Shown here: one piece after another, positions 12,096-34,744 of the stretch | How the letters are laid out: each line of letters starts with the position of its first letter | Numbering within the stretch: position 1 is the stretch's first letter | Source: Cyanobacteriota bacterium | Lineage (GTDB): Bacteria; Cyanobacteriota; Cyanobacteriia; Cyanobacteriales; Nostocaceae | Direction: 5' to 3' | DNA length: 64,000 nt | Assembly: GCA_046045965.1 (NCBI GenBank) | Contig: JBJOKS010000018.1 | Coordinates: 32,001-96,000, forward strand | The notes under the pieces: model-generated | Databases searched by the model: none | Seen by the model: the letters and a program-made list of their open reading frames with translations, nothing else | Told to the model about the DNA's origin: nothing | Made by a program: the position numbers and the translations under genes

Positions 12096-12114
12096 TTGAG
12101 GAACTTGTGAGGAA
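12096..12114 (-). promoter_or_regulatory. Direct-repeat box TTCCTCA-CAAG-TTCCTCA-A, copy 1 (faces nifJ)
   Basis: Minus strand TTCCTCACAAGTTCCTCAA, 10 nt, then TAGTTT. Confidence 0.85.
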
Positions 12115-12212
12115 AACCTGTACTTGATGATCTTGTATACAAATTTCTCGGAAGTCCTGTTTAAGTTTTGACTTAAGTATTCAGTTATCAGCTATAGAGT
12201 ATATTTTTCTCC

Positions 12213-12231
12213 TTCCTCACAAGTTCCTCAA
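12213..12231 (+). promoter_or_regulatory. Direct-repeat box copy 2 (faces 12378 gene)
   Basis: TTCCTCACAAGTTCCTCAA, 10 nt, then TAAATT. Confidence 0.85.
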
Positions 12232-12377
12232 CTTCTAGTTCTAAATTAATAGTAGATTAAGGACTAATCGGTTAAGACTTGTATAACAAGGTTGTAGGAA
12301 ATTCCTACATTAATTTTTAATACCAAGTTGGAGACAGGGTTGCCATCAAAATATTAACTTCATTTCCACCAAAACCT

Positions 12378-12782
12378 ATGATTGACAATGTACTGCCAAT
12401 GAATATTGTCAGGAAGATTAATCAGGAGATAACAATCAGTGGACAAATTACACCAGAACAGCTACAAAAGCTGGCTGATGATGGTTATAAGTCTGTCCTA
12501 AATCTGTGTTTTGCCGATGAACAAGGCTCCTGGAAAAGCGAACAGGAAGAAACTGAATTTCTAGGATTATGTTATGTCAATCAGCCTACAAAAATTGAAA
12601 ATCTAACTCTTCAAGGTGCAAGCCAGGTTTTTCAAATTATTAACGAATTGCCTAAACCACTGCTGATACATTGTAATAATTCCAAACGATCAGCAGCTAT
12701 AGTATTATTATATATTTCTACTAAACAAGGAATTAATTTTGAGCAGGTCTGGCAACAGGCTATCAATTTAGACTTGCTATAG
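12378..12782 (+). CDS. DUF442/Blh-like phosphatase or sulfurtransferase-fold protein
   Basis: ISGQITPEQL..GYKSVLNL, PLLIHCNNSKRS; start may be 12399. Confidence 0.75.
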   Translation: MIDNVLPMNIVRKINQEITISGQITPEQLQKLADDGYKSVLNLCFADEQGSWKSEQEETEFLGLCYVNQPTKIENLTLQGASQVFQIINELPKPLLIHCNNSKRSAAIVLLYISTKQGINFEQVWQQAINLDLL

Positions 12783-12882
12783 GTAAGAATTCAGGAGTCA
12801 GGAGTCAGGAGTCAGGAGTCAGGAGTCAGGAGGAGGAAAGGGGAGGAATGGTGAAAAGTATTCCCGTACCTCCCGCGTCTTC

Positions 12883-13176
12883 TTAGTTAGTGCTGAAGAC
12901 TTGAGATGAAGCTACCCGATGAGTGGTATTAACAGATGGTAATTTCTGTTTAGTAGCAGATGCTGATGCTGTGACAACGTGGCTGTTTTCTTTCATTAAA
13001 CGGCTATAAGTACGCTGGGGAATATAATGCAGTGGATTATAGCCAATAAAACGTAAAATCAACACACAAGCCCAAGAATATCTACCATCAGCAATAACTT
13101 CAATAATCTGATTTAATTCTTCAGGTGTAATAACATTCTCAAAAGTAGCTGGAGAAGAAGAAATTCGGTAGTTCAT
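12883..13176 (-). CDS. HetP-family protein (short paralog)
   Basis: [29 protein letters not shown] signature. Confidence 0.85.
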
Positions 13177-13222
13177 AACTAGCCCTGATATAACTGGTAT
13201 TATTGGAGATTTGGCGTTACAT

Positions 13223-13332
13223 TACAGCAGAATATGGCTTACGCCACGCTATCAGGAGTCAGGGGTGAAACGGGCGAATGTCTATAGGTTTCAATTTTGA
13301 TTCTGTACCTGATTGATCTGTAATCTGCTGTA
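13223..13332. mobile_element. Degenerate MITE-like element
   Basis: TACAGCAGA...TCTGCTGTA terminal inverted repeats with internal TGTACCT, as in common Nostoc MITEs. Confidence 0.4.
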
Positions 13333-14097
13333 TCTGCGGAATGATCTGATCTATTGACATGGTTGTATAATCGCCAAAAGTTCTGAAATCAAGTGAACTA
13401 GAAATTTAGCGATCGCTGGCAACTATGCCCAAATTATCGAACAATAAAGATGTATGAAGTAATCCTAATGACTAAAGATTTAGCTTCACTTTTCGGTAGT
13501 TAAATTCAAGCTGATCAACTTGCTTTATCATTATTTTTATCTTACTAATTCCCCCTTAGATTACATTTATGTAAATTCTAGACCAAGGTTATTTATGTTA
13601 ATGTCTCAGTCAATTGTCTGATAAAAAAATAGGGAACACAAACAATCATCTGATATGCAGAATACTATTTTTTTTTAAGCATTTTAGCCAAGTTGGCAAT
13701 TTTTATATAAAGAAATTATAGTTGATGGCAATTTTTGTATATTTATAAAATGCCTATTTAAATAGTGTCACATGGGGAGTTTACAAAATTACAACTAGCA
13801 GCTATTGAAAGAGACAGGTAAAAAAATTAGACTAAATAACTTTACTTGCTAGTTAGCTAAAAGGTGACTTTAGTATGGGTAAAATGATAGACAATAGTTA
13901 CTAACTAAACCATATTGTTCTCTATCTCAGGAATTACTTTATGGTTTCACACTTGAGTTAGATGCGATAATTTTGACAATTTATATATAATCGCAGAGGA
14001 TAATACACCTCACCTAAACCATCATCTAAAACTACTGTGGTTTTTTTTGAGGGTAGAAAAATGAGGTCTTAACCTAGTGATGGTTGGTTAATTTCCT

Positions 14098-31720: not shown

Positions 31721-31849
31721 AATAATTTGGTAATGGGTAATGGGTAATTGCTAATTGGTGATTGGTAATTGGTGATAGGGAAGAAAGAATAAACTCTTGC
31801 CTTTTGCCTTTTGCCTCTTGCCTTCTTACTGTTCCCTGTTCCCTGTTCC

Positions 31850-33448
31850 CTATTCCCTAACTAATGCCAAATACTCATCATGGAAATAACGCAAAGTGCT
31901 AAAAACGGGATTTGGTGCAGACTGGCCTAAACCACATAAACTTGTGTGTTTCACCATGTCGCAAAGTTCTTCTAATAATTGCAAATCAGCTTTTGCTGCT
32001 TTTCCTTCACTAATCTTGGTTAATAAATCATGTAGTTGCACAGTTCCCACTCGACAAGGAATACATTTACCACAAGATTCATCCATGCAAAATTCCATGA
32101 AAAATCTCGCCACATCTACCATATTTGTGGTTTGATCCATCACAATCATCCCACCAGATCCCATCATTGAACCTAACGCGGTTAAGGATTCGTAATCTAC
32201 AGGTGTAGCAAATGCTGATGCTGGGATACATCCCCCGGAAGGTCCGCCTGTTTGTACTGCTTTAGCAATACCATCGGGAACTCCTCCCCCCATTTCTTCG
32301 ACAATTTGTTGTAAAGTTGTCCCCATTGGAACTTCAATTAAACCAGTGTTGCGGATTTTTCCAGCTAAAGCAAAAACCTTTGTACCTTTACTTTTTTCTG
32401 TGCCAATATTAGCAAACCAATCAGCACCATTTCTGATAATTGGGGCAATATTAGCAAAGGTTTCTACATTGTTAATTAAGGTTGGATAACCCCATAAACC
32501 TGATTCAGCCGGGTATGGTGGACGGGGATGAGGGACACCGCGTTTACCTTCAATAGAAGCCATTAACGCCGTTTCTTCACCGCAAACATAAGCCCCTGCA
32601 CCGATGCGAATTTCAATTTTAAAATCAAAAGGTGATTCAAAAATTTGTGAACCTAAAAGTCCTAAACGTTGGGCTTGACGAATTGCAGTTTCTAATCTTT
32701 TAATAGCAATCGGATATTCTGCCCTGACATAAATATAACCTTGAGTTGCACCGATGGCATAAGCTGCGATCGCCATTCCTTCTAACACTCGATGGGGATC
32801 ACTCTCCAACACACTCCGATCCATAAATGCACCGGGATCACCTTCATCAGCATTGCAAATTACAAACTTTTTCTCACCTTTTGATTTTGCTACTGTCGCC
32901 CATTTTAAACCGGTGGGATAACCAGCACCACCCCTTCCTCTTAACCCACTTTTAGTAATAGTTTCTACTACCTCAGTTGGTTTCATTTCTCTTAATACTT
33001 GGTAAAGGGCTTGATAACCATTTTCTACAATGTAAGATTGAATTCTTTCTGGGTCAACTTTACCACTGTTTTCTAACACAATCGGTAACTGACCAGTAAA
33101 AAATGGCTGCTGCAAATCTTGTTGTTTTAAATTCGTTTCTTCTCCTTGAATACTTGCAATAACTTTTGCGGCCTCCTCTGGGGTAACTTGTTCATAAAGT
33201 TTCGTTTCTTTGTTGTTTTCTTGATCCACTTGTACCAAAGGACCTTGACAACAAAGCCGCATACAACCCACACCAGAAACATGAATCTGATCTTCTAAAC
33301 CCGCAGCTTTTACAGATTTATCTAAATTATCTTTTACTGCTTGAGAACCGGAAGATAAACAACCCGCAGCTGTACAACAACGAATCTGCACAGGTTTCGC
33401 TTGAGAACGTTCAGTTCTCGCAATTTCTAATAATTCATTTAGTTCCAT
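31850..33448 (-). CDS. hoxF: Diaphorase subunit HoxF (NuoF-like)
   Basis: [39 protein letters not shown]. Confidence 0.97.
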
Positions 33449-33947
33449 TTTCCTGCCATTCTCCCACTTTTTCGCAAACTGATTCTGAGGTTTGATTTCC
33501 TAAAACTGCACCATCAAAAACTACCGCAGGTGCAATACCACAAGCACCCAAACACCTCGCTGTCATCAAGGAAATTTCCCCATCTGGGGTTGTTTCTCCA
33601 GCTTTAATATGAGTGGCTGTTTCTAAACTTTTTAAAATTTCTTGTGCGCCTTTCACATAACAAGCTGTACCCGTACAAACTACACAATTATGTTTACCTT
33701 TCGGTGCCAGGGAAAACAAATGATAGAAAGTGGCAACTCCATACACACGACTCGGTGGTAATTTCAATTGATGGGCAATGTACAATAATAAGTCTAACTC
33801 TAAATAACCGAATAATTCCGAAGCTCGATGGAGAATTTCAATTAGTGCATCTTGTTGATATTGATGACGTTTGATAGTTGCATCCAACATCTTCAAACGT
33901 TTATCACCACTGGGATGAGTAGATGGGGGTGAAACAGAAGTTTTCAT
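33435..33947 (-). CDS. hoxE: Diaphorase subunit HoxE (NuoE-like)
   Basis: [22 protein letters not shown]. Confidence 0.95.
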
Positions 33948-33948
33948 G

Positions 33949-34032
33949 ATTGGTAATTGGTAATTGGTAATTGGTAATTGGTAATTGGTAATTGGTAATT
34001 GGTAATTGGTAATTGGTAATTGGTAATTGGTA
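33949..34032 (+). repeat. STRR heptamer (ATTGGTA)x12
   Basis: 12 copies abutting the hoxE start codon. Confidence 0.95.
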
Positions 34033-34049
34033 ATATTTAAAAATCTTCC

Positions 34050-34547
34050 CTATTCCCCATTCTCTATTCCCTCAAAATGGATAATATGCACAGAACAAGG
34101 GGCATGATGTAAAACATAATTGCTGACACTACCAATTAAAAATTCGGTGATACCAGAAAGTCCTCTTCTTCCAATCACAATCAAATCAGCATTCCATGTC
34201 TTAGCCATTTGGCAAATTATTTTACCGGGACTACCCACATTTTGCGTAAATTCTGTGTTAAGGTTTTCTGTATTGGCTTGGGCGCAGAATGCTTGTAACA
34301 TTTCCAAACCTTCGTTTTGATGGACTGCCAACTTTTGCAAGTACCTTTTCATACTGTCATCACCCCAGCCTGGATAATAATCCATCTGAGAAATAAGCAT
34401 CATATCAGGAATACCATCTTCATCTGGTGATAGAACGTGTAGTAGCATTAAGTTAGCTGATGTCAGCTTTGCTAAAGACAGGGCTTGTTCAAAAACTTGC
34501 TTACCCATGTCCGAACAATCCAATGCCACTAAAATTTTGTTAAACAT
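34050..34547 (-). CDS. Universal stress protein (first gene of hox operon)
   Basis: MFNKILVALD, DLIVIGRRG..IGSVSNYVLHHAPCSV. Confidence 0.92.
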   Translation of the reverse strand: MFNKILVALDCSDMGKQVFEQALSLAKLTSANLMLLHVLSPDEDGIPDMMLISQMDYYPGWGDDSMKRYLQKLAVHQNEGLEMLQAFCAQANTENLNTEFTQNVGSPGKIICQMAKTWNADLIVIGRRGLSGITEFLIGSVSNYVLHHAPCSVHIIHFEGIENGE

Positions 34548-34725
34548 AGATACCCTCATTTTAGCTCGCTCATGATTAACAATAGCTCTTTCTGTTGTAT
34601 GAATTCCTGTTTGGTAAAAATACGTTTATTTCATTTGGATTTCGTTACAATCATCTTCACAATTCGTTAATCTAAACACCTATCCTTGTACTTGGTTCTA
34701 CACTTATGCTTTATACGCCAACAAT

Positions 34726-34744
34726 TTGAGGAACTTGTGAGGAT
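34726..34744 (-). promoter_or_regulatory. Direct-repeat box copy 4 (faces usp-hox operon)
   Basis: Minus strand ATCCTCACAAGTTCCTCAA, 10 nt, then TATAAA. Confidence 0.85.

Follow-up and report, generated by a model that had tools for sequence, protein, structure and literature searches.

The subject of this analysis is a short promoter element, here called the box, that recurs between genes of fermentation and hydrogen metabolism in a Nostocaceae genome, together with a large hybrid regulator, P0001, encoded beside one of its copies. The window, by which we mean the whole 64-kb stretch analyzed, corresponds to C18:32001-96000, part of one contig in a 5.29-Mb, 107-contig assembly (38% G+C; 92% complete). 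Within it the 18-mer TCCTCACAAGTTCCTCAA occurs as exact copies at 12096-12113(-), 12214-12231(+), 26038-26055(-) and 34726-34743(-), all intergenic, as a first-pass annotation of this DNA had reported and as our search of the window reproduced. Gene calls agree with the earlier assignment of the genes that the boxes face, namely nifJ, which encodes pyruvate:ferredoxin oxidoreductase (PFOR), with a DHOD-like gene and pfkA (box 1), a DUF442-like gene (box 2), hoxW with an acetate-CoA ligase gene (box 3), and usp with hoxEFUYH (box 4; Table 1). The box is real and strongly conserved, and it defines in this assembly a low-oxygen/fermentation regulon that comprises about nine promoters and is apparently undescribed.

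Chance would supply 0.03 copies of TCCTCACAAGTTCCTCAA in the window, and none of 100 shuffles reached four. No further copy lies in the window at up to three mismatches, and the loose pattern TTCCTCA-N4-TTCCTCA with three mismatches is not enriched there (9 found against 7.7 expected); the signal is carried by near-exact copies only, not by a degenerate pattern. Boxes 1-3 are pairs of perfect TTCCTCA half-sites, and box 4 begins ATCCTCA. All four boxes are followed by a -10-like hexamer after 10 nt, or 11 nt if the count starts where TTCCTCA ends, and reading the sequence returned the same hexamers that had been listed before (TAGTTT, TAAATT, TAAGCT and TATAAA).

Table 1. Boxes, candidate regulator and associated genes in the window
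Feature	Position	Strand	Remarks
Box 1, TTCCTCACAAGTTCCTCA	12097..12114	-	points at nifJ
-10-like TAGTTT, 11 nt after box 1	12080..12085	-	predicted transcription start site near 12073
Box 2, TTCCTCACAAGTTCCTCA	12213..12230	+	back to back with box 1
-10-like TAAATT, 11 nt after box 2	12242..12247	+	
Box 3, TTCCTCACAAGTTCCTCA	26039..26056	-	
-10-like TAAGCT, 11 nt after box 3	26022..26027	-	
Box 4, ATCCTCACAAGTTCCTCA	34727..34744	-	
-10-like TATAAA, 11 nt after box 4	34710..34715	-	predicted transcription start site near 34703
Candidate regulator P0001, 1301 aa	34873..38778	+	divergent from box 4; start 131 nt from the box
P0001 winged-helix DNA-binding domain (aa 148-221)	35314..35535	+	
P0001 recognition helix EEAVRTHIKGLRMKL	35431-35475	+	contains AVRTHIKG
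P0001 FixL-like heme-PAS (aa 683-806)	36919..37290	+	proximal His aligned: His741 in AEQHRHHVS
nifJ (PFOR)	8345-11986	-	behind box 1
DHOD-like gene	7186-8217	-	after nifJ
pfkA	5965-7029	-	nifJ-DHOD-like-pfkA span 5965..11986, putatively co-transcribed
BLH-phosphatase/DUF442-like (sulfur-transferase-like) gene, 134 aa	12378..12782	+	behind box 2
hoxW-like hydrogenase maturation protease gene	25370-25837	-	behind box 3; span with ligase gene 22518..25837
Acetate-CoA ligase (ADP-forming type) gene with C-terminal GNAT	22518-25286	-	behind box 3
usp	34050-34559	-	behind box 4
usp, hoxE, hoxF, hoxU, DUF3122, hoxY, CBS-CP12, hoxH	27600..34559	-	same direction; putative single operon
ppsA 3' end	2..712	+	promoter box left of the window
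Single-domain receiver gene	38864..39250	+	immediately 3' of P0001

In the whole assembly a 15-nt core, with one mismatch allowed, has nine matches, its reversed control has none, and each of the nine sites carries a TA-led -10 hexamer at 11 nt. All six copies with at most two mismatches fall inside 37 kb of C18. A second back-to-back pair lies 1.8-1.9 kb left of the window, where C18:30156(+) faces ppsA, a promoter at which an additional site had been predicted, and C18:30064(-) faces a 71-aa Cys-rich open reading frame (ORF; CPCC...WFC..CW). Three weaker copies keep the architecture, one before a PTOX/alternative oxidase gene, one before a radical-SAM gene with an NrdG-like activase, and one at a contig end; eight of the nine sites face a gene, and the ninth (C13:215) runs off the end of its contig. 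The targets are then ppsA, nifJ-DHOD-like-pfkA, the DUF442-like gene, hoxW-acs, usp-hoxEFUYH, PTOX, the radical-SAM/NrdG-like genes and the small Cys-rich ORF. Nine oriented promoter sites against zero reversed-control matches identify a rare, promoter-placed element rather than a dispersed repeat, and the genome-wide scatter that the first-pass annotation had named as grounds for abandoning its proposal is not seen. Mobile and dispersed repeats of the MITE, STRR or HIP-like kind are ruled out, as the nine copies in 5.29 Mb are all promoter-like and lie before genes or at a contig end. The Cys-rich ORF itself (C18:29700-29960(-), about 2.1 kb left of the window) has no Pfam match; ORFs of this CPCC type (about 70-110 aa) stand directly behind boxes in at least seven other species (L082, L085, L112, L116, L121, L236 and L241), and the ORF is a conserved member of the regulon, possibly a zinc ribbon.

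The box is widespread in cyanobacteria. Of 201 genomes sampled from the family, 187 contain the 15-nt core at no more than one mismatch, typically in 3-30 copies, with a reversed control near zero. Its distribution is patchy in a phylum-wide sample of 401 genomes: it occurs in 38 of 45 Nostocaceae and in multiple copies in five other families (7 in G211, 11 in G289, 7 in G454, 12 in G456, 6 in G234 and 6 in G270), and it is near absent from family f25 (probably picocyanobacteria; 2/29), from another large family (2/20) and from the large f34 group (genomes of about 2 Mb, probably non-photosynthetic). An exact 17-mer is found in at least 122 stretches of a species-level genome collection; among the 80 matches listed, 74 come from named cyanobacteria of many orders and five from other phyla, and those outside Nostocales include Chamaesiphon, Leptolyngbyaceae, Acaryochloris (plasmid pREB4), Thermosynechococcaceae, Phormidesmis, Pantanalinema and a Gloeobacterales metagenome-assembled genome (MAG).

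The 75 listed loci not assigned to other phyla provided 77 sites for an analysis of spacing. TTCCTCA-N4-TTCCTCA is invariant in all 77 sites so selected, and 66 of them have TA at precisely 11 nt past the box and 52 have TAnnnT there, compared with at most 4 of 77 for TAnnnT at any of the other offsets between 5 and 19; the box-to--10 distance first noticed in the window is therefore kept across species. Conservation runs on to an AATT 3' of the box (T at box position 22 in 76/77), and the 77 sites have no conserved sequence 5' of it. None of the five non-cyanobacterial sites has TA at +11. As the first downstream ORF of at least 80 aa, taken for 70 of 77 references (five non-cyanobacterial, one unnamed and one duplicate being left out), we found PpsA (4), PFK (3), PFOR (3), DUF442-like proteins (5), HSP20 (5), Usp (4), HoxE (1), protoglobin (2), FeoB (2), pentapeptide proteins (2), PTOX (1), an NrdG-like protein (1) and DUF4360 (2), with others once each; of the ORFs without a Pfam match, two resemble HoxW and five belong to the small CPCC type.

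With TAnnnT taken as the -10 element, the box covers about -41 to -24 and the invariant CACAAGTT occupies the place of a -35 hexamer; a sigma-70 consensus scan of 25700-35000 found no -35 passing at either box promoter. In E. coli the pho box of PhoB likewise pairs 7-bp direct repeats at an 11-bp period, which stand in for the -35 and stop some 10 bp short of the -10. The box shares this layout and placement, with two half-sites 11 bp apart that overlap the -35 region at a constant spacing to the -10, as in class II sites of the OmpR/PhoB type, and its candidate reader would also be an OmpR/PhoB-family winged helix acting as a tandem dimer; it differs from the pho box in its half-site, TTCCTCA, in a signal that would be oxygen rather than phosphate, and in a candidate regulator that is fused to a kinase and a phosphorelay. 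Such pho-box-like placement without a -35 of its own argues for an activator-dependent promoter to which an OmpR/PhoB-type winged helix would bind as a tandem dimer, and the box is most likely a conserved promoter element that serves as a PhoB-style (class II) activator site. All testable parts of the original proposal, a shared activator-type site of OmpR/PhoB layout that belongs to no described regulon, have held, and activation rather than repression at the box promoters is what their geometry suggests.

Overlap with the -35 region would also suit an operator whose protein represses in air and leaves in anoxia, and RcaC is reported both to activate and to repress (PMC5737509). We nevertheless regard this account as improbable, because these promoters lack a usable -35 and an invariant box fills that region, a hallmark of activator-dependent promoters, and because repression by occlusion would not need the fixed phase between box and -10. 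It is more improbable still that the box belongs to promoters of an alternative sigma factor as their upstream element, or that it is a repeat, mobile or structural, with no regulatory protein of its own: although the fixed -10 distance and nearly invariant sequence would be expected of these too, the element is an 18-22 bp direct repeat of 11-bp period that ends at about -24 and is followed by an ordinary TAnnnT -10, it occurs in only nine copies per genome, all gene-oriented and at orthologous promoters across species, and Rfam has no match anywhere in the window. Three metatranscriptome runs are represented by contigs, two of the runs with small shares; among these, low-depth contigs are identical to the window over 29100-36500 and one bridges box 4 (34671-35340), with the reservations that contigs cannot show starts and that DNA carry-over is possible.

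Divergent from box 4 lies the gene for P0001, a neighbor that the first-pass annotation of the boxes had passed over and whose Pfam domains are, in order, REC, Trans_reg_C (a winged helix-turn-helix, wHTH, of OmpR type), HPt, REC, PAS, PAS, HisKA, HATPase_c, REC and REC, with the usual Asp, Lys and His landmarks of these domains present. Its N-terminal REC-wHTH-HPt-REC part (aa 1-490) is 44-54% identical to RcaC-like proteins of 620-800 aa, and P0001 is the only member of the RcaC clade in the assembly, the next REC-wHTH paralogue being at most 41% identical. The first PAS domain has no informative match. The second matches the FixL heme domain 1dp6 at E 4.9e-22 and DosP at 2e-12, and its alignment with FixL retains the proximal His that ligates heme (His200 in FixL) as well as the Arg at position 220, as would be expected of a FixL-type sensor. 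This alignment suggests that oxygen would be the signal of the P0001 heme-PAS. Homologues of P0001 are annotated merely as 'response regulator' or 'multi-component transcriptional regulator, winged helix family'.

Several observations connect P0001 to the box. In other Nostocaceae, a box lies within 1.5-2.5 kb upstream of 19 of 33 P0001 orthologues (17 divergent, 2 co-directional), compared with a chance of about 0.003 per region (about 8 boxes per 7 Mb), a comparison in which shared synteny inflates the 19/33; a box is directly divergent from the regulator in a Synechococcales MAG too. Among 46 Nostocaceae genomes, which are kin and not independent, an orthologue is present in 26 of 30 with at least three boxes versus 3 of 16 with two or fewer. 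The helix EEAVRTHIKGLRxKL is common to hybrids of five families and to the 618-620-aa RcaC-like proteins of family f11, whereas RcaC-like paralogues carry AVRAH, TVRAH or TVRSH. An AVRT(H/Q)IK protein occurs in all seven non-Nostocaceae sample genomes with at least six boxes, and five of the six box-free genomes checked have only helices of the xxRAH type. In G289, a 620-aa RcaC-like gene with an AVRTH-type helix (C58:14501-15514) sits inside a cluster of boxes (C58:4032, 12694, 21808 and 23701), about 4 kb from a separate gene for a FixL-like PAS kinase (C58:9594-9968, 52% identical); these separate neighbors among the boxes are thus a split counterpart of the P0001 fusion. In G153, nifJ (87% identical) and hoxH (90%) are present and both regulator and box are missing: no copy with five or fewer mismatches faces nifJ within 400 nt upstream, where a decayed copy in the opposite direction can be seen by eye.

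Other observations weigh against P0001 as the reader of the box. Four Nostocaceae genomes that are 99% complete, G128 (8 hits), G169 (4), G536 (4) and G188 (3), keep well-formed boxes at hoxW, usp, ppsA, nifJ, protoglobin, the CPCC ORF and a PFL-activase-like gene, with one or two hits per genome that have no TA at +11, and they have no AVRTH-helix protein and no FixL-like PAS; their best wHTH identity is 57-61% in G128, G169 and G536 and 39% in G188, and no pseudogene remnant of the regulator lies beside the usp boxes of the four. Within two genera, box number does not track the presence of the regulator, and of 12 regulators from outside Nostocaceae a single one has a box, and a weak one, in the 2.5 kb before it. 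G507 has the helix yet no box by the strict pattern, and in the same-genus G065, whose regulator is 90% identical, there is no box within 1.5 kb upstream. The adjacency of box and regulator in Nostocaceae may in part be inherited synteny, and the four genomes with boxes and no regulator could possibly be accounted for by substitution of a paralogue, by recent loss or by a different binder altogether.

The last of these leads to another account of a real activator site, in which a core OmpR-type regulator common to all these genomes or a stand-alone paralogue of about 230 aa (58-65% identical to the P0001 N-terminus) binds the box and P0001 is a mere neighbor or a parallel input. The absence of the P0001 clade from the four box-bearing genomes favors such a binder, as does genus g33, where boxes are confined to the 4 of 9 genomes with a stand-alone paralogue at E 1e-84 or better. 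So does the H box of Hrr1, AGGAATTTACM (PMC13079394), which resembles the reverse complement of the box, AGGAACTTGTG, at 7 of 11 positions; related small regulators would therefore read related half-sites. However, the stand-alone paralogues carry a different helix, TVKVHIRG, occur in the box-free genomes G493, G249 and G254, and are missing from the box-bearing G000 and G188. An inventory of OmpR-type proteins in box-bearing G000, G188 and G128 versus box-free G047 and G019 contains no other orthogroup that tracks the box, the seven orthogroups common to the first three all being present in the other two, and among 31 ORFs divergent from boxes there is one REC-wHTH protein (an orthologue, in L083) and no other recurrent DNA-binding or transcription-factor family. 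A universal regulator fits poorly with a box found in 2 of 29 probable picocyanobacteria and 2 of 20 members of the other large family. RpaA in particular, judged by distribution and target genes rather than by motif, was rejected: the box is nearly missing from f25, and none of the 70 downstream ORFs is of the kai, oxidative pentose phosphate, glycogen or cox type (kai, zwf, gnd, glgP, cox) that would mark a circadian-output regulon. We thus consider a different binder unlikely.

Weighing this evidence on both sides, we retain P0001 as the most likely binder of the box in this genome, a reading that we hold to be somewhat probable. In the mechanism that we propose, falling oxygen would switch on the FixL-like heme-PAS kinase of P0001, phosphate would pass from the HisKA His to a C-terminal REC, on to the HPt His and finally to the N-terminal REC, and the OmpR-type winged helix would bind the two TTCCTCA half-sites 11 bp apart. 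A tandem P0001 dimer on the box would then recruit RNA polymerase to the nine promoters, which serve ppsA, nifJ-pfkA, hoxW-acs, usp-hox, PTOX, the radical-SAM genes and small ORFs. Taken as a whole, an activator box read by P0001 under low oxygen is the explanation to which we incline, with reasonable but limited confidence. It is an even question whether one polypeptide that combines oxygen sensing, a four-step internal phosphorelay and recognition of an 18-22 bp box is also the missing master switch by which heterocystous and several other cyanobacteria turn on fermentation, pyruvate:ferredoxin oxidoreductase and the bidirectional hydrogenase; on that reading, it would have been overlooked because the unicellular model strains do not have it.

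Each part of this proposed system has a known relative. P0001 shares the REC-wHTH-HPt-REC architecture of RcaC but differs from it in its helix (AVRTH versus AVRAH in paralogues), its fused kinase and its putative fermentation and hox targets; no phycobiliprotein gene is among the 70 downstream ORFs. The RcaC L box, an element of chromatic acclimation that serves phycobiliprotein promoters under light-color control, is TTGCACA-N4-TTGCACA, which differs from the box at 2 of 7 positions per half-site. As for its orientation, the L box is called an 'inverted' motif in PMC5737509.

Hrr1 of Nostoc flagelliforme is an OmpR-type regulator that reads paired 11-nt direct repeats, the H box (PMC13079394); the AGGAA core is common to the H box and the reverse complement of our box, and both would have a Nostocales OmpR-type reader. 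In contrast to the proposed reader of our box, Hrr1 is small and stands alone, responds to rehydration and acts on sigB1, cpeR1 and wspA (PMC13079394).

With rhizobial FixL-FixJ, P0001 shares a heme-PAS with a proximal His upstream of HisKA/HATPase, and its output would likewise be genes of low-oxygen metabolism. Unlike FixL-FixJ, its output domain is a Trans_reg_C of OmpR type rather than of FixJ/NarL type, sensor, relay and DNA-binding domain are joined in one polypeptide, and this polypeptide belongs to an oxygenic phototroph.

As regulators of hox and nifJ, a 2026 review names RpaA, cyAbrB1/2 and SigE (PMC13421787). These and LexA share their target genes, hox and nifJ, with the box, and none of them is reported with the box motif; the first-pass annotation had remarked that the hox regulators LexA and AbrB-like proteins are not known to use it. 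The strains in which these regulators were worked out are unicellular and come from groups where the box is rarely found.

To our knowledge, the known hox regulators (LexA, AbrB-like proteins, SigE and RpaA) do not sense oxygen. A search of full-text literature, with subscription-journal papers and preprint supplements lying outside it, gave no description of the box motif or of the regulator among the hits listed. What appears to be new here is a widespread box and an RcaC-like regulator fused to a FixL-like kinase, parts of which resemble a PhoB-style box, RcaC and FixL.

How cyanobacteria turn on the bidirectional hydrogenase, PFOR and fermentation as oxygen vanishes is a long-standing question, and our findings offer for it a sharply defined cis element, one named candidate sensor-regulator and a coherent list of targets: ppsA, pfkA, nifJ, acs, hox, hoxW, PTOX, anaerobic radical-SAM activases, FeoB, protoglobin, Usp and Hsp20. 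The pair would provide an oxygen-responsive promoter and regulator for engineering the production of H2 or fermentative products in filamentous cyanobacteria.

Some features of the genes behind the boxes merit description in their own right. The acetate-CoA ligase is a 922-aa fusion of an alpha domain above the NCBIfam cut-off, an ATP-grasp domain and, at the C-terminus, a GNAT that matches Pat-like proteins weakly, and could be a Pat-type protein acetyltransferase instead of, or besides, an acetate-forming enzyme. The hox row is interrupted among hoxU, hoxY and hoxH by a CBS-CP12 fusion gene (29133-29747(-)) and a DUF3122 gene (30431-30952(-)), and its spacers at 31721-31850, 33948-34050 and 29748-29825 are full of STRR-type heptamer tandem repeats (GGTAATT and others), for which short BLAST searches gave 687 and 1510 matches genome-wide; these repeats account for the very high depth of metatranscriptome contigs in two bins. 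The nifJ homologues (66-70% identical) of the box-free genomes G079, G099, G019 and G047 (L323-L326) have another conserved upstream stretch, ATGAGTACA..ATTAATATTAA, which is perhaps the site of another regulator for a second type of nifJ.

Two genes that flank box regions have no box of their own, a HetP-family gene (12883-13176(-)) and a pentapeptide-repeat gene of the Alr5209 family (26206-26592(+)). Downstream of ppsA are a pyruvate kinase gene (902-2428(+)) and a gene for a second large sensor of 993 aa (2932-5913(+)), which comprises CBS, three PAS, HisKA, HATPase and REC domains; with this sensor behind ppsA besides the 1301-aa regulator, the island contains two hybrid kinases.

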